This document shows, piece by piece, positions 9,521 to 38,218 of a DNA stretch of 64,000 nt. The notes beneath the pieces are model-generated. The model made no database searches. It was not told where the DNA came from and saw only the letters and a list, made by a program, of their open reading frames with translations. The position numbers and the translations under genes were made by a program. Every line of letters begins with the position of its first letter. The stretch's first letter is position 1. The stretch is from a virus: positions 1 through 64,000 of the IMG/VR virus record IMGVR_UViG_3300009161_000023; one strand, 5' to 3'.

Positions 9521-10249
9521 TTATTGATTTCTTTTTGGATATGCTTTAACTAAATTTTCAATTGCTTTATAATGTTGATTTTGTGCTTTTTTACTTCCCC
9601 TAAAGCAAAAATATCTACATTTGCTTTTTTGTTTTACAAATTGAGCATCTGGCCATTTTTTTAATATATCTTCTTTTTTTTGCGATCCTATTTTTGATCT
9701 TATAGCTCTACTTCCGTAAAGTTTTCCATTTATTAATACACCAAATCTACTACTTCCTTTGCTTTTTATATTTGGATTATTATCTCGCATACTTCCGACA
9801 TAAGTAAATCCACAAGCTTGATAAATAGTTCCAATTTCACCAGCTAATTCATCAACAGTGCATGTAATTACTTCGTATTGTGGCGGTAATAGTTTCATGC
9901 TTTGTCTGATTAGAAATGAACCTGAATAATCTGGTGCCCAATGAACACAAGCACCTCTTGCCAACAATAGCATTTTGCCTGTAAATCCAAATTTATCCCA
10001 ATGTCCAAGGTTTTCACTATATTCTGTTCCATAAACTACAACACCAGCACAATGATCTCCAAAAAACAATCCAAAGCTATATTTGGATATTGTTGGCATA
10101 CATTTTAGCCATTCATATTCAAGAATTATTTTCTTTGATTCAGAGTGTGAGATACTTCTAACTACTGCACTTTTAGAACTTAGATTTATATCTGGAATAG
10201 GATCTGTTTTAGATTTCTCTTCTCTGATGATTCTTTGATGAGCTTTCAT
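9521..10249 (-). CDS. mom: Mom-family (GNAT-fold) DNA adenine hypermodification enzyme, divergent
   Basis: VRSIS..II....MPTISKYSFGLF...GVVVYG, SFLIRQSMKLLP, D...GEIGTIYQACGFTYVG, KCRYFCF, terminal YPK: the Mom-like motif series. Confidence 0.8.
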   Translation of the reverse strand: MKAHQRIIREEKSKTDPIPDINLSSKSAVVRSISHSESKKIILEYEWLKCMPTISKYSFGLFFGDHCAGVVVYGTEYSENLGHWDKFGFTGKMLLLARGACVHWAPDYSGSFLIRQSMKLLPPQYEVITCTVDELAGEIGTIYQACGFTYVGSMRDNNPNIKSKGSSRFGVLINGKLYGSRAIRSKIGSQKKEDILKKWPDAQFVKQKSKCRYFCFRGSKKAQNQHYKAIENLVKAYPKRNQ

Positions 10250-10262
10250 AATAAACCTAAAG

Positions 10263-10335
10263 AGCGAAATTTTGGAACTGCCCCAAACCCTCTAGTCTGG
10301 ATGACTAGCGTTTCTTCTCTTGAAACTTATTTCGC
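10263..10335 (-). tRNA. Non-canonical tRNA-Gly(UCC), no encoded CCA
   Basis: GCGAAAT-AA-GTTT-CAAGAGAAG-AAAC-G-CTAGT-CATCCAG-ACTAG-AGGG-TTTGG-GGCAGTT-CCAAA-ATTTCGC-T; four fully paired stems, 73 nt. Confidence 0.88.
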
Positions 10336-10341
10336 AATTAA

Positions 10342-10370
10342 ATCTTACATTTTTTATAAATGTTTTTCAA
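10342..10370 (-). promoter_or_regulatory. Sigma70-type promoter for the tRNA-Gly/mom unit
   Basis: TTGAAA-N17-TAAGAT; tRNA G1 is the 7th nt after the -10 box. Confidence 0.7.
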
Positions 10371-26489: not shown

Positions 26490-27054
26490 AATTAATCCTT
26501 ATTCAAAGTGCTTATCATTTATGTATTTTCTTTGTATCTGTAGAAAATGTTCCTTTGTTTTTAATTGATTTCAATTGTTTTGGATCAAAAACTATGGCGT
26601 TAAATGTTCCATCTTTATCTTTTAAAATAACGCCATCGTATCTATCTCTAATCAATTCATCGATGCCTTTTTTATCATATTCATCCCACCCAGCAGGATT
26701 TTGTATAGATGCATAAAGTTCAAAAACGGCACCACTAACACCAGCACCAGTTTCATTTTTATCAGCAGCGTTTTTATCTGATGTCACCCAAATTATTCCG
26801 CCCATAGCAGATTTCTTAGAATCAAATCCAAATTTCTTTATTTTTTCTGCTGCTTCTTTGCTTGTCTGATGATAAACAACAATTGGATTTCCTTCTGAGT
26901 CTATTACTTTGGAATTTTTAAACCAATTTTTAAAATCAGGATTTTCAATTATGGAGTTTTCTAACCATATTTTAAAAGAAAAACTTTCGCTTGTGTATCG
27001 CAATTGGTGTCTTTGTGTAGTTGAAAGTCCTTCTGGAGTAGAAGCCTGTGGAAT
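25803..27054. repeat. 51-bp exact direct repeat (25803-25853 and 27004-27054)
   Basis: TTGGTGTCTTTGTGTAGTTGAAAGTCCTTCTGGAGTAGAAGCCTGTGGAAT identical in both paralogs. Confidence 0.9.
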
Positions 27055-27963
27055 GAAATGATTTGATTTACCTTGACTTATTGTAGGTGTTACATATAAT
27101 TTTTTATCTCTTAATTGCTCAATAGTATATTCACTGCCTTTATTGGTTTTATATGAAGTAATTCCTATAGTTTGCTCATCTTCTCTGCTTCTGTCTTCTC
27201 TGTTTTTTTCCATAATTTTTTCTGCTGCATCTACAATCTTATTTGCAGTATCTTGATTGAGTTCCCACACTTCAAAGAAAGGCCCTCTAATAATAATAAA
27301 TCCTAAAGATTTACATCCATATTTTCTGACATCTCCATGTGATAATGCTTGCATGGCTTCTGTTAGTTTTTGATCAGAAACTAATTGCGGATTAATATCT
27401 TTAATAGCATTATAAAGGGTGCCAATATTAGTAATTTCTTTTTCTCCAATATTATCATCTTCAATATAATCTGGAAGATTTTTAATTTTATATTTATATC
27501 TCTTTAATTCCTCTAATTTTTCTTCTAATTCTTCATCTATTTCTTCTGGTTTTTTTGATTCAATTTGTTTAATTAATTTTTCTGCAATATTTACTAATTC
27601 TTCTCTATGATTTAAAAAAATTGCTGCTTCTATCGTTTCTTCATGAGTTTTTACATCTGCTTCTGTTAATTCTCCGTGATCATAAATCCATTCACCTTTT
27701 AAAAGATCTACTTCTTCCTTGTCTTCAAATGGTGGCTCAATTATTTCAAGTTGTTCTTTCCACCAATTTAATTCTGCTTCAACATTATTTACTTTAGTTT
27801 GTTCTAAAAGAGATTTGATCCATATCATAGATTGTTCAATTTTAAATTTTTCTATTTCTTCCCATCCCAACCCATCTAAATTATTTATTATGTTGTGAAA
27901 TGCTATAATAAAATCTTTTTGTATTTCTTTATTTATAAATTTGATAACTGCGTCTTTGTCCAT
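26515..27963 (-). CDS. Two-module protein: shared N-domain + linker + ADP-ribosyltransferase-like (ART-PolyVal type) C-domain
   Basis: FKNWFKNSKVIDSEGNPIVVYHQT..LYASIQNP..YDGVI..VFDPKQLKS..NKGTF. Confidence 0.7.
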   Translation of the reverse strand: MDKDAVIKFINKEIQKDFIIAFHNIINNLDGLGWEEIEKFKIEQSMIWIKSLLEQTKVNNVEAELNWWKEQLEIIEPPFEDKEEVDLLKGEWIYDHGELTEADVKTHEETIEAAIFLNHREELVNIAEKLIKQIESKKPEEIDEELEEKLEELKRYKYKIKNLPDYIEDDNIGEKEITNIGTLYNAIKDINPQLVSDQKLTEAMQALSHGDVRKYGCKSLGFIIIRGPFFEVWELNQDTANKIVDAAEKIMEKNREDRSREDEQTIGITSYKTNKGSEYTIEQLRDKKLYVTPTISQGKSNHFIPQASTPEGLSTTQRHQLRYTSESFSFKIWLENSIIENPDFKNWFKNSKVIDSEGNPIVVYHQTSKEAAEKIKKFGFDSKKSAMGGIIWVTSDKNAADKNETGAGVSGAVFELYASIQNPAGWDEYDKKGIDELIRDRYDGVILKDKDGTFNAIVFDPKQLKSIKNKGTFSTDTKKIHK

Positions 27964-31749: not shown

Positions 31750-33375
31750 ATGGCAAAATATTTAGTTGTTCTAGGAGGAGTTTTTAGTGGCATTGGAAAA
31801 GGCATTTCCATTGCTTCGATTGGATATCTTCTTTTCTTAAGAGGATTGAAGGTTATACCAATAAAATTTGATCCTTATTTGAATACTGATGCTGGTATAC
31901 TTGCTCCAAGAGAACATGGAGAAGTATTTCTTTGTAATGATGGAAGTGAAACAGATTTAGATTTAGGGCATTATGAAAGAATTATTGGTTGTCAAGTTTC
32001 TAAAAACAACATTTATACAAGCGGAACTCTTTATAAAGAAATTATACAAGAACAAGAAGATGGTAAGTATTTAGGAGAAACAGTTCAAGTTGTTCCTCAT
32101 TTAACAAATAAAATCATTGATAAATTAAAAAGTATTGGCAAAGACAATGATGTTGTATTGGTAGAAATTGGTGGAACAGTAAGTGATATTGAAAGTATGC
32201 CTTTTATGGAAGCAATAAGGCAATTTAAGCAAAAAAATTCAAGTGATGTTATTATTGCTTTGTGTGCTCCAATTCTTTGGGTGCCAACTATAAAAGAATT
32301 TAAAACAAAGCCTTTGCAACAAGCTGTAAATTACATGCAATCTTGTGGTCTAATGCCAGAAGTATTATTGTGTAGATCAGATAGAGAAATTCCATCAAAG
32401 ATATTGGATAAAATTAGTGCTTTTACAAATGTTCCTAAAGATGCAGTTTTTGAAGCTTTAGATGTTAAATCAATATACCAAGTTCCAATTGAATTTTATA
32501 ATCGTCATGTAGACGATTTAATTATAGATAAATTTCACTTGCCAAGAAACGGTTTGAGAATTCATAAATATAAAGATTTAGTAGAAAAATATGTTAATTG
32601 TGAAGATTTACATTCAGTAAACATTGGTATTTTAGGCAAATATGATAATTGCGATGAAGCTTATTTAAGCTTAAGAGAAGCTATTTTTCACGCTGGCGTA
32701 GCAGAGAATGTTAAAGTTAATATTGTTTGGATGTCTGCTCAAGAATTAGAGCAGAATAAAGACTCTAAGTTAGCGTTTAAAATATTTGAAGATCTTGATG
32801 GTTTAATTATACCTGGTGGTTTTGATTCTAAAGGGGTAGAAGGAAAAATTAAAGGTATAAATTACGCAAGAAACAAAAAGATTCCATTTTTAGGTATATG
32901 CCTTGGTTTACAATGTGCTGTAATTGAATTTGCAAGACATGTTGGCCTTGAAAATGCTAATAGTCAAGAATTCGACATAGAGACAAAAAATCCAGTTGTT
33001 CACTTTATCGCAGGACAAGAAAAACTAAAGAAAAAAGCAGCTACTATGCGATTGGGAGCATACGATTGTGATTTAGTAAAAGATTCTTTGGCATTTGATC
33101 TTTATAAGAAAAAAACAATATCAGAACGCCATAGGCATCGTTATGAAGTAAACGATGCTTTAATTGATGATAGGTTTGAAAAAGAAGGATTTAGAATTAC
33201 TGGTAGACATCCAGAGACTAATTTAGTTGAAATTATTGAGATTGATAGAGAAAAACATCCTTACTTTATAGCTACTCAAGCTCATCCAGAATTCAAGAGT
33301 AGGTTGACTTCTCCTTCTCCTTTGTTTTTAGGATTAATTCAAGCTGCAAAAAAGAAGAGGAACATTAATATATAA
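31750..33375 (+). CDS. pyrG: CTP synthase
   Basis: GGVFSGIGKG, KFDPY, HGEVF, DLGHYER, GICLG nucleophile, ERHRHRYE, QAHPEF. Confidence 0.97.
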   Translation: MAKYLVVLGGVFSGIGKGISIASIGYLLFLRGLKVIPIKFDPYLNTDAGILAPREHGEVFLCNDGSETDLDLGHYERIIGCQVSKNNIYTSGTLYKEIIQEQEDGKYLGETVQVVPHLTNKIIDKLKSIGKDNDVVLVEIGGTVSDIESMPFMEAIRQFKQKNSSDVIIALCAPILWVPTIKEFKTKPLQQAVNYMQSCGLMPEVLLCRSDREIPSKILDKISAFTNVPKDAVFEALDVKSIYQVPIEFYNRHVDDLIIDKFHLPRNGLRIHKYKDLVEKYVNCEDLHSVNIGILGKYDNCDEAYLSLREAIFHAGVAENVKVNIVWMSAQELEQNKDSKLAFKIFEDLDGLIIPGGFDSKGVEGKIKGINYARNKKIPFLGICLGLQCAVIEFARHVGLENANSQEFDIETKNPVVHFIAGQEKLKKKAATMRLGAYDCDLVKDSLAFDLYKKKTISERHRHRYEVNDALIDDRFEKEGFRITGRHPETNLVEIIEIDREKHPYFIATQAHPEFKSRLTSPSPLFLGLIQAAKKKRNINI

Positions 33376-35741: not shown

Positions 35742-36477
35742 TAAAAAAATACCAGTAATAATATGGATGTACCACACTGAATTATGGGATGAATTTTTAC
35801 AATTACTTGTTAAAAATAAGAATTATGTATATCCAGTTGTTGGATTGTGTAAGGGCAATGATAATAAAACTATTATAAAATCAATTAAAGAAAATTTTAA
35901 TGAATTTAATATTGATTATTATGATAATTATGGCAAGGACATAGGCCCATTTCTATATCAAATACAAAAAATAGAATCTTCTTTTTTTATAAAGATACAT
36001 TCTAAAAAGTCTAAATTAACTTTTGACGAATCTATTAATTGGAGAGAATTGCTTGTAAACGACCTTTTAGGAGAGGTTCTGTTGTCTAATATAAAAACTT
36101 TAAGTTCAGATAAAATACTCTTACCTTGGAAAAAAATTGGAAATAATGATATTGGATTAATTTCTAATAGAAGATTTATAACAAGCAACCATGAATATAA
36201 AAATAAAGAAAACATAAAACAAATTTGTAATATAATTAATATTGATTATGAAAAACTTAAAAACGGTAGATTTATTAGCGGAACTATGTTCATGAGTAGA
36301 ACTGATATATTTAAGAAATACTTCAACTGTGTTACCTTGCCAAAAATTATAAAATTAATAAAGCCTGAAACAGGCGATGTAAAAGATACAGTATTTGGAA
36401 CATTTACTCATGCACTTGAAAGAATATTTGGATATATCATAACAAATGAAGGAATGAGAATAACTTCTCCTAATTAA
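35728..36477 (+). CDS. RgpF-like (rhamnan synthesis F) glycosyltransferase domain
   Basis: YHTELWDEF, NYGKDIGPF, KIHSKKS, FISGTMF, HALERIFG. Confidence 0.8.
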   Translation: MIFINKKIPVIIWMYHTELWDEFLQLLVKNKNYVYPVVGLCKGNDNKTIIKSIKENFNEFNIDYYDNYGKDIGPFLYQIQKIESSFFIKIHSKKSKLTFDESINWRELLVNDLLGEVLLSNIKTLSSDKILLPWKKIGNNDIGLISNRRFITSNHEYKNKENIKQICNIINIDYEKLKNGRFISGTMFMSRTDIFKKYFNCVTLPKIIKLIKPETGDVKDTVFGTFTHALERIFGYIITNEGMRITSPN

Positions 36478-38218
36478 TTTTAATATTATTTAAAAATGTA
36501 GTAATTAATTGTAATTTATCATTTCTTTCTACAGCTTCAGATAATTTAACATTTAATACATCTAAATATTTAATAAAATTATTTAAATTATTTGTATTGT
36601 CAGCTAAATATTTAAATTCAGCTAATCCATAATCTACAAATGTTATTTTTTCATCTAATACTAATATATTTTGAAGTCTAAATTCTGGATAAAAAATACT
36701 ATTGTTTGTTAATTCATTGAATATATCTTTTATTTGTGTTTTCCAATCTTTAGGCAAGTTAAAATTATCATATAATGATTCTCCACAATAAGACATCTTT
36801 ATTGTTTTGCTTTCTATATCAAAACTTATTAATTTCGGCACACTATTTAAATTTTGTATTTTTTTTAATATGTCTAATTCTTTTTTAAATATATCTAATG
36901 AATTTTCATGACCTTCTGTAATCCATCTTAATTTATCATTATATTTTTTAACTACAATATTATTTTTAGGAAGTAGATAAATATGAGCAGTTGACCCAAA
37001 TCCATAAGCTTTTAATTTTTCGTTAAATTCATCATCTATACTATTATGATATTTGAAATTTTCAATAGTATGTAAAAATATACTTATTAAGTTAACGGAT
37101 TCTGATTCATCTTTAATTCCTTTTTTACTACATTGCAAAAAGAATCTCATGCTTTCTAACATTTCAATATATGCTGGAAAATCAATATATTCATTGATAT
37201 TTATTTCGTAAGTTTCTTTATTTTTATTGTGTTTTTTAAAAGAATCTGGATTATGATGTAGCACATATTCATATAAAATATCATACATTAAATTCAATGA
37301 TATTATTTTATTTCTTTCATCATTATCAGATAAAATATTATCTATGAAAAAACTAAGACTATTTTCTATTTTTTTAATTCTTTCTCTAATTGGTTCGTAG
37401 TGGGGAGAATTAAATATAACATGAAGATTATTCTGTGTATTTGTTGATATGTTTTTTTGATATACAGTTTCTTGAATATTATAAATATTTAATTTTTTGT
37501 GTAAATTAGATATTAAAACATCGACCTGATCTATAATTGGATAAAGATTTTTAAATAATACAGGAATGCATTTGTGATTTATAATGTAAAAATGTGTAGA
37601 GTGAAATTCATCGTCAAATTTATACCAAATATTATTGTATATTTTGTTTTTAGAACAAGCATTTAGCATTACGATATCCCAATCATCTGGTATTTCTTTA
37701 ATGTATTTTTCAATGTTTTCTGTGTTTGCTACAGAGATATCATCTTCTGTTATTATTGTGTAATCTTTGAAATTAATATAACCATATATCATGCTTCTTA
37801 AATGAGAAATGTAACATGCCAAAGGGCCATCTTGAATGTGTATATTATCATCGTTTATTTTTGAAAACTGGTCTATTTTTAATGGCTTTAATTCTATATT
37901 TGGATTAAAATCTGAAAGAAAATGTAAAACAAAAGATAAGTCATTTATTAGTTGTTCTTTGTTTTTCCAATTAGTTGCTTTTAAATGGGAAAAATTATTT
38001 AAAGATATTTTTTTAAATTCATTTATTGTACTTTCATATCTTTTATAATCTTTTTCAAGATTTATCATAATGCAATTCATGTCAATTTTTTTTTTAAACA
38101 AATGCTTTTCTATGATTTCTTTAATGTTAATTTTTTTATCTGATAAATTACTTGCATATTCTTCATATTGGAATCTTTTAACATCTACTCCTATTAATCT
38201 CTTGTCTTTATTATTCAT
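36470..38218 (-). CDS. GT25-like glycosyltransferase fused to a kinase-like domain
   Basis: INL..R, ACYISHL, ITEDD, STHFY; C-terminal GFGSTAHIY, VVKK, NILV, DYG. Confidence 0.75.
   Translation of the reverse strand: MNNKDKRLIGVDVKRFQYEEYASNLSDKKINIKEIIEKHLFKKKIDMNCIMINLEKDYKRYESTINEFKKISLNNFSHLKATNWKNKEQLINDLSFVLHFLSDFNPNIELKPLKIDQFSKINDDNIHIQDGPLACYISHLRSMIYGYINFKDYTIITEDDISVANTENIEKYIKEIPDDWDIVMLNACSKNKIYNNIWYKFDDEFHSTHFYIINHKCIPVLFKNLYPIIDQVDVLISNLHKKLNIYNIQETVYQKNISTNTQNNLHVIFNSPHYEPIRERIKKIENSLSFFIDNILSDNDERNKIISLNLMYDILYEYVLHHNPDSFKKHNKNKETYEININEYIDFPAYIEMLESMRFFLQCSKKGIKDESESVNLISIFLHTIENFKYHNSIDDEFNEKLKAYGFGSTAHIYLLPKNNIVVKKYNDKLRWITEGHENSLDIFKKELDILKKIQNLNSVPKLISFDIESKTIKMSYCGESLYDNFNLPKDWKTQIKDIFNELTNNSIFYPEFRLQNILVLDEKITFVDYGLAEFKYLADNTNNLNNFIKYLDVLNVKLSEAVERNDKLQLITTFLNNIKIN

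Follow-up and report, generated by a model that had tools for sequence, protein, structure and literature searches.

A tRNA-Gly-like RNA family encoded beside phage mom genes and its probable role as a dedicated glycyl donor for DNA modification

The stretch of DNA analyzed here (the window) comprises positions 1 to 64,000 of a single record, the IMG/VR virus record IMGVR_UViG_3300009161_000023; both of its strands were scanned, i.e., 128 kb. It derives from a T4-like myovirus of 27% GC, found in freshwater metagenomes, that encodes sheath and baseplate proteins, gp15, PolA, DnaB, RNR, and CTP synthase. On the minus strand lies a compact cassette composed of a candidate sigma70-type promoter (10342..10370), a tRNA-Gly-like RNA gene of 73 nucleotides (nt) with a UCC anticodon triplet (10263..10335), supported by its cloverleaf, its minimum free energy (MFE) fold, and covariation, a 13-nt spacer, CUUUAGGUUUAUU, with an AGG Shine-Dalgarno-like core (10250..10262), and an open reading frame (ORF) of 242 amino acids (aa) for a Mom-family GNAT protein, a predicted Gly-tRNA-dependent modifier of N6 of adenine in DNA (9521..10249). 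The Mom ORF begins with MKAHQR, and its ATG follows exactly 13 nt past the 3′ end of the RNA.

The promoter candidate, read from sequence, pairs a −35 box (TTGAAA, 10370-10365) with a −10 box (TAAGAT, 10347-10342) across a 17-nt spacer, the −10 box stopping 6 nt ahead of G1 of the RNA. This arrangement is only a 9/12 match to the consensus, and the region holds no excess of matches of this quality (9 observed versus 16.6 expected). A comparable −35/−10 pair with similar spacing precedes the RNA in three other loci (L014, L015, and L016) amid otherwise diverged sequence, and a promoter ahead of the window RNA is considered plausible. No terminator was detected on the minus strand between the RNA and mom, and the 13-nt gap is too small to hold a second promoter; short spacers of 7-25 nt also separate the RNA from mom in L014-L019, L023, L006, and L378. 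In one metatranscriptome run, a single 245-nt contig covers positions 10030-10274, namely, the last 12 nt of the RNA, the spacer, and the 5′ end of mom. Such a contig cannot reveal ends, strand, or CCA tails and could reflect DNA carry-over, and it is taken as a weak hint of co-transcription of the RNA and mom.

The window RNA has acceptor, D, anticodon, and T stems of 7, 4, 5, and 5 bp, respectively, and all 21 pairs are Watson-Crick. The spacing of its parts is canonical, with 2-nt and 1-nt connectors, 7-nt anticodon and T loops, and a 4-nt variable region (AGGG). It holds the full identity set of bacterial glycyl-tRNA synthetase (GlyRS), as listed in PMC7826273: G1-C72, C2-G71, G3-C70, U73, C35, and C36. 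The anticodon loop, CAUCCAG, contains A33 followed by the UCC triplet, with A37 present. The universal tRNA core (U8, G18G19, U33, and T54-Psi55-C56-R57-A58) is lost, as A occupies positions 8, 9, and 33, the D-loop, CAAGAGAAG, lacks GG at the place of G18G19, and the T-loop is GGCAGUU. The T stem contains U-A pairs at 49-65, 50-64, and 51-63, and no CCA is encoded, U73 being followed by CUU. The element is, therefore, a tRNA-shaped RNA without the conserved tRNA core.

A sequence-only reading of this locus had described the same cloverleaf, 13-nt spacer, identity set, lost core features, and three U-A pairs of the T stem, all of which were confirmed. Its promoter motif was also found as described, with a match that is not significant by itself. 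Likewise, the substitution of A33 for U33 holds for the window copy, to which it is peculiar, but not as a trait of the wider RNA family described below, in which position 33 is U, G, or A. Judging from the loop sequences, A33 of the window copy looks like the outcome of the loss of one base from the 8-nt loop that is common in the family, CAU(U/A)CCAG.

The MFE fold of the window RNA is the cloverleaf (−21.4 kcal/mol, z −3.2), and this fold is kept in a 146-nt transcript context with the leader and mom 5′ sequence added. A custom script for canonical cloverleaf geometry, applied to both strands of the window, returned this RNA as the sole match on either strand, even when 1 mismatch and 3 G-U pairs were allowed. 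Twenty composition-preserving shuffles gave no perfect cloverleaf and 0.1 per window at ≤1 mismatch; the window cloverleaf is not a chance fold. ARAGORN reported 0 tRNAs in the window, and Rfam (RF00005) gave no tRNA match there at E≤10. The window RNA scores 88.4 and 85.9 bits with R1 and R2, respectively, two family covariance models whose training alignments both contain it.

The ORF downstream of the RNA is a Mom-family GNAT. It matches Pfam PF25680 with 75.9 bits (cut-off 27.1; E 4.4e-21), residues 29-239 covering profile positions 3-202 of 202, as well as phrog_1384, "Mom-like DNA modification protein" (E 5e-22). In a phmmer search against the PDB, the only match was Mu Mom, 8bv8 (E 0.0024). 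The AF2 (AlphaFold2) model of the window protein (pLDDT 88.9, pTM 0.82) has as its top Foldseek matches in the PDB 8bv8_B (E 1.8e-11) and 8bv8_A (E 3.2e-11), with TM-scores of 0.57-0.67, and other GNATs follow at E 1e-4 or weaker; at the sequence level, the window protein and Mu Mom are only about 21-23% identical. Two residues of Mu Mom, R111 and S124, are essential (PMC13219725). In the phmmer alignment, S124 (Ala in the 8bv8 crystal; chain numbering equals natural numbering minus 9) is aligned to window S111, and R111 falls one column off window R98, making the Arg assignment slightly less certain than that of the Ser. Because R98 and S111 are invariant across 29 Mom homologs, and because the modeled structure has 8bv8 as its best match, the window enzyme looks active.

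Mu Mom uses Gly-tRNA-Gly to attach glycine to N6 of adenine in double-stranded DNA (Silva et al., Nat Commun 2026, PMC13219725; preprint 2023). It takes all three E. coli tRNA-Gly isoacceptors and refuses Gly-tRNA-Ala (PMC13219725), and it therefore reads the tRNA body rather than the anticodon wobble base. For Mu Mom supplied with host Gly-tRNA-Gly, the glycyl adduct was shown to rearrange to N6-carbamoylmethyl-adenine, which blocks restriction. Phage-encoded tRNAs are unmentioned in that paper (PMC13219725). The sequence-only reading had assigned the window ORF to GNAT-fold Mom-like proteins, in agreement with the profile and structure matches above, and had correctly named Gly-tRNA as the Mom donor.

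The window RNA is one of a phage RNA family with at least 50 distinct members. In an alignment of 13 elements made with MAFFT from sequence only, 97.0% of cells are paired, compared to 44-49% with slid partners; double changes occur in 15 of the 21 pairs, and this pairing was matched by none of 500 shuffles. An alignment of 36 elements was made to the covariance model and is hence somewhat favorable; in it, 98.4% of cells are paired, with changes on both sides in 17 of the 21 pairs. Given the 24 G-U cells and the CCA encoded after U73 in 15 of the 36 elements, the functional strand is the strand of mom. TANNNT boxes lie ≤18 nt upstream in 21 of the 36 elements; these are not informative, because the DNA is AT-rich.

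Positions G1-C72, C2-G71, C35, C36, and A37 are invariant in all 36 aligned elements, and both U73 and G3-C70 are found in 35; U8 is present in only four and the D-loop GG in only two. The latter two members are the same two that have a canonical T-loop, UUCGAUU, and therefore the elbow co-varies rather than decays. The anticodon loop has 7 nt in 22 of the 36 elements, 8 nt in 13, and 24 nt in one, and 11 nt in the further member L378. At L020:3241-3329, a 24-nt A/U-rich insert on a 6-bp stem replaces the 7-nt anticodon loop, and at L378:450-525 the loop has 11 nt; both RNAs retain a CCA motif within the loop. These two members have replaced the anticodon loop yet keep the acceptor, D, and T arms, which clearly shows that the geometry of decoding can be dispensed with. 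As far as can be read from the aligned sequences, the pattern of selection fits charging, not decoding. The 73-nt element is a true RNA gene under selection, with tRNA-Gly(UCC) as its origin.

Standard tRNA finders recognize few of these RNAs. ARAGORN calls two members tRNA-Gly (ACC and UCC; L025 and L027), and one member, L023, passes the Rfam tRNA threshold (32.9 bits). With R2, core members score 76-90 bits and a canonical Mycolicibacterium tRNA-Gly(UCC) 46.7 bits; canonical tRNA-Pro, Met, Leu, and Gln genes in the same loci gave no match to this model. A weak tRNA-like match (24-28 bits) with a short acceptor stem and UUU as the triplet in the loop position, on which ARAGORN is silent, was seen 400 nt downstream of mom at L019:3721-3786.

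Linkage between the RNA and Mom was analyzed from both sides. For the Mom side, closer relatives of the window protein (n=11, 60-84% identity) were fetched by exact-protein look-up and sampled without regard to the RNA. The RNA occurs ≤300 nt from mom, upstream or downstream, in 10 of the 11; in P0023, no RNA was found within the 300-nt flanks of mom. In five relatives with 67-84% identity (P0002, P0003, P0004, P0005, and P0008), the RNA is located 9-23 nt upstream of mom and shows compensatory changes in all four stems, and the genes further upstream differ (a 268-aa ORF, HNH endonucleases, a tail-tube gene, and a HAD phosphatase). The RNA is also upstream of mom in P0021 and in P0007 (10 nt, with an 11-nt loop), downstream in P0013 (with a 24-nt insert for the anticodon loop), inside a miscalled mom N-terminus in P0019, and within the order mom–element–tRNA-Met–mom in P0011. 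Across the 10 RNA-bearing relatives, the neighbors include HNH, tail tube, chaperonin, HAD phosphatase, and Acb5 genes. Positions 35-36 hold CC, as in a glycine anticodon, in every tRNA-like gene of the RNA family that adjoins Mom. In the Mom tree, the window protein falls in a 100%-supported clade of eight rows, all eight with the RNA; RNA carriers cluster, with three of five rows in the sister clade, and a distant clade has the RNA overlapping the mom 3′ end.

A first protein-seeded search of viral contigs with a single Mom query had returned relatives of ≤57% identity only, with no RNA upstream by eye. This apparent refutation was overturned when the closer relatives were fetched and the covariance model matched the RNA at two of the loci inspected by eye, L006 and L011.

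Several observations concern the annotation and arrangement of mom genes. At L022:2008-2844, the RNA (2021-2090) lies inside a called 278-aa Mom ORF, gene callers having extended some mom ORFs upstream through the element, and such over-extension is possibly behind some of the 260-278-aa Mom entries in databases; in P0005 (267 aa, L018), among the longer entries, the RNA lies upstream of the called start. Several phages carry tandem Mom paralogs with the RNA between or beside them (L379:781-2798, L229, and the contigs of L027, L028, and L436). In L379 and L056, a canonical tRNA-Met(CAU) gene is located directly upstream of a mom gene.

For the RNA side, IMG/VR was searched with two DNA patterns chosen independently of Mom, and the covariance model split true elements from chance matches. 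Mom was found on 17 of the 19 viral contigs bearing the RNA, the two exceptions being an estimated 3% and 17% complete, and on none of 79 pattern-matched loci without the element nor on any of three whole control contigs. In all 22 distinct co-located pairs, the RNA and Mom are on the same strand, and in about 20 the gap is below 100 nt or the two overlap. Thus, the RNA family is genetically coupled to Mom on the same strand, whether upstream, downstream, overlapping its 3′ end, or a few kb off. The sequence-only reading had proposed scanning the flanks of Mom homologs for tRNA-Gly-like folds and had expected linkage in related phages; the scan recovered both the co-occurrence and the covariation, and the linkage is strong both ways. 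It is, however, clade-limited and not universal, as many Mom genes have no RNA.

Among metagenome contigs of 1-9 kb, mostly marine, 29 RNA loci were found, often as tandem pairs, with Mom on four. In five marine copies (L155:3200-3720(−), L186:5580-6160(−), L139:1250-1810(−), L212:2860-3420(+), and L145:800-1360(+)), an ORF-free stretch of ~500 nt follows, sharing the blocks GGGTTCTCTCTCCACA, hairpins ending TTTACTCCTTT...T-runs, and repeated GTAACAGTTTGTAACAA. Rfam found nothing in this stretch, which may hold further small RNAs, terminators, or operators.

Other searches gave no additional copies. An exact 17-nt anticodon-arm search of viral contigs found no match, since exact strings fail where the anticodon stem covaries, and neither the region nor the L027 element had a blastn match among isolate phages. 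In cultured phages, tblastn returned Mom relatives of ≤30% identity only (f2b1, CRP-902, SerPounce, and Thornton), with no RNA within 2.5 kb of them, and hence no cultured model phage was identified. A scan of genome contigs with the RNA pattern, in 80 of at least 120 matched stretches, gave chance matches and one canonical tRNA-Gly, and no prophage copy of the window subfamily.

Because Mu Mom uses Gly-tRNA-Gly, a dedicated donor is the best explanation of the cassette: it is likely that host GlyRS loads the RNA with glycine and that Mom draws on it as a glycyl donor of its own, one passed over by the translation machinery. The promoter just upstream would start a transcript at or near G1, so that the RNA forms the 5′ part of the mom transcript. 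Host enzymes would cleave after U73 and then add CCA; an RNase Z-type cut is proposed because no CCA is encoded in the window copy. Charging with glycine by host GlyRS is proposed because the bacterial glycine identity set is intact. Mom translated from the same transcript would then take the glycyl group and place it on N6 of adenines in phage double-stranded DNA, where the adduct would rearrange to N6-carbamoylmethyl-adenine and block restriction, as with Mu Mom. The remodeled elbow (D-loop and T-loop), positions 8 and 33, and, in many members, the altered loop length would make the RNA a poor substrate for EF-Tu and the ribosome. The outcome would be a private pool of activated glycine for Mom, made in step with the enzyme and not competing with translation.

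Several results weigh against this interpretation. Mu Mom works with ordinary host tRNA-Gly (PMC13219725), and a private tRNA is thus not required. Among the best 80 IMG/VR Mom loci (53-67% identity), the RNA lies within 3 kb in only three distinct phages, and a 48-kb phage, 100% complete, encodes Mom but lacks the RNA. Two jumbo phages have 19-30 kb between the RNA and the closest Mom, and in the 19-kb case the RNA is a near-canonical, ARAGORN-called tRNA-Gly(ACC) and not a core family member. On their short contigs, 25 of the 29 metagenomic RNA loci show no Mom. Weakness of the T stem is not shared by all members of the family, which detracts from the weak-T-stem case for escape from EF-Tu. 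In the wider family, the identity set departs from that of the window in L011:903-973 (A3-U70 with A73) and in L382:14538-14609 and L385:5709-5780 (both C3-G70); these departures may track hosts with a different type of GlyRS. The remodeled elbow (A8, no G18G19, and G54 G55 G58) could also impair recognition by GlyRS, RNase Z, or the CCA-adding enzyme. Finally, no CCA-adding enzyme was found among the 10 mid-sized window ORFs checked, and maturation would therefore depend on the host.

Of the alternatives, the one that survives best, though it is unlikely, is a cis-acting function: the RNA would be a tRNA-like leader of the mom mRNA, serving as an RNase P/RNase Z processing signal, a stabilizer, or a sensor of glycine or tRNA status, with no part as an aminoacyl donor. 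The window RNA ends 13 nt short of the mom ATG, and no terminator intervenes; this placement, together with the metatranscriptome contig spanning the junction, a weak hint, would suit a leader, and mom of phage Mu is itself under elaborate translational control via Com. However, a leader would not be expected downstream of mom, over its 3′ end, between two mom genes, or 2-30 kb off, where the RNA is found elsewhere, nor would it often have its own −10-like box and an encoded CCA. It would also have no need for invariant GlyRS identity nucleotides or for a discriminator followed by CCA.

It is rather improbable that the RNA is an ordinary decoding tRNA-Gly(UCC), supplied for GGA and GGG codons in an AT-rich phage and found beside mom only because mobile genes accumulate at hot spots in tRNA regions. 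Transfer RNA genes are common in large phages, HNH genes flank some of the cassettes, a canonical tRNA-Met stands beside Mom in L056 and L379, and the members closest to ordinary tRNAs include two that ARAGORN calls and that have canonical T-loops and one that passes Rfam. A decoding tRNA would nonetheless be expected to keep U8, G18G19, and the T54-Psi55 equivalents, which the window copy and most members lack, and U33, which is replaced in many; ARAGORN and Rfam miss nearly all members, and the 8-nt loops (13 of 36), the 11-nt loop, and the 24-nt insert do not suit decoding. Chance insertion at a hot spot would also leave unexplained why the tRNA-like partner of Mom is always of the glycine type and always on the strand of Mom, and the novel D- and T-loop sequences are conserved, indicating new constraints.

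A role in counter-defense has still less to recommend it. The RNA would then be a decoy or replacement tRNA directed at anticodon nucleases or other tRNA-targeting defenses, or a buffer against the drain that Mom places on Gly-tRNA, and not the preferred donor. Phage tRNAs that resist host anticodon nucleases are known, a variable anticodon loop would escape loop-specific nucleases, and many of the marine copies occur in tandem with no visible Mom nearby. Yet tight same-strand adjacency to Mom in many unrelated contexts would go unexplained, and a replacement tRNA must decode, against which the loop lengths and the lost core nucleotides argue. The rejection of the window RNA by standard tRNA finders and the "pseudo-tRNA" label given by automated pipelines to a Dehalococcoides counterpart might point to a tRNA pseudogene in decay, a remnant of an attachment site, or a fold arisen by chance. 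These readings are effectively refuted by covariation, with 98% pairing upheld by compensatory changes over at least 36 diverged copies. In addition, the window copy has 21 of 21 perfect pairs, loop motifs are conserved in the family, and no shuffle yielded such a fold.

The dedicated-donor interpretation has precedents and counterparts in known systems. Mu Mom (PDB 8bv8, PF25680) is of the same family and fold as the window ORF, its catalytic Ser aligns with S111, and the donor chemistry is presumably the same, namely, transfer of a glycyl group from tRNA to N6 of adenine followed by rearrangement. Mu, however, has no tRNA gene and takes whichever tRNA-Gly isoacceptor its host provides, whereas the window mom shares a cassette with a deformed tRNA-Gly of its own. 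A tRNA-Gly set aside from translation is known in Staphylococcus aureus, where the non-proteogenic tRNA-Gly NP1-NP3 are donors for FmhB/FemA/FemB (Rietmeyer et al. 2021, PMC7826273); they escape EF-Tu and are preferred by FmhB via determinants in the D and T stem-loops (PMC7826273). The sequence-only reading had cited this precedent correctly. The staphylococcal tRNAs are chromosomal and confined to staphylococci, and their glycine goes to a peptidoglycan precursor, whereas the phage acceptor would be DNA. They also remain recognizable as tRNAs, with 7-nt loops, while the phage RNAs depart much further from the usual form (A8, no GG, non-U33, and 8-24-nt loops) and, unlike them, are physically linked to a transferase gene. 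With D- and T-loop motifs other than those of NP1-3, which are set apart here by their description, the phage family of freshwater and marine metagenomes is analogous to the staphylococcal tRNAs rather than one with them.

Closer to the phage cassette is a locus in the ssrA genomic islands of Dehalococcoides, in which a conserved 76-bp tRNA-Gly-like "pseudo-tRNA" was reported in the first 150 bp of a mom homolog (McMurdie et al. 2011, PMC3146451). This tRNA-Gly-like fold, at the start of a 270-aa Mom homolog in a bacterial integrative element, was described as an annotation curiosity and primer site (PMC3146451); no function was proposed, as the donor of Mom was then unknown. Likened by its published description, it almost certainly represents a cassette of this kind in which, as in L022, the annotated mom start lies too far upstream. 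The claim of the sequence-only reading that such a cassette had not been described consequently stands as to function, no paper among those searched linking such an RNA to Mom function, but not as to the locus itself, which was on record from 2011. The ordinary tRNAs of phages, such as those of T4-like clusters, share with the RNA family a phage-borne, tRNA-sized cloverleaf and, in some, an encoded CCA. However, ARAGORN and Rfam recognize them, U8, G18G19, U33, and T-Psi-C are retained, their anticodons are diverse, and they are clustered and tied to no single enzyme gene.

Elsewhere in the window, genes were noted for a protein with an ART-PolyVal ADP-ribosyltransferase domain (26515-27963(−)), a glucosyltransferase-like protein (phrog_2835; 36470-38218(−)), and a full CTP synthase (31750-33375(+)); with these genes present, the phage may have additional functions in DNA or nucleotide modification and host takeover.

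On balance, and by a small measure, the evidence favors a general principle: some phages would encode a translation-incompetent tRNA whose sole task is to deliver activated glycine to a DNA-modifying enzyme encoded on the same transcript, the remodeled elbow and the freed anticodon loop both excluding EF-Tu and the ribosome and marking the RNA for Mom. If so, this would be the first virus-encoded tRNA for a job outside translation and the first dedicated tRNA cofactor for DNA modification, and the principle of staphylococcal non-proteogenic tRNAs would extend from cell-wall synthesis to the arms race between phages and their hosts. The marine tandem copies without Mom would then point to a Mom elsewhere in the genome or to unknown glycyl-tRNA-dependent transferases. 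In practical terms, these RNAs serve as a marker that is invisible to ARAGORN and Rfam and that causes mom start codons to be miscalled; moreover, Mom homologs expressed in heterologous hosts may need their cognate RNA for full activity, which bears on DNA-labeling tools. The RNA family would also constitute a natural experiment on tRNA identity, constrained by synthetase and transferase only, in which acceptor identity, C35, and C36 are kept and all features required by the ribosome are free to change.

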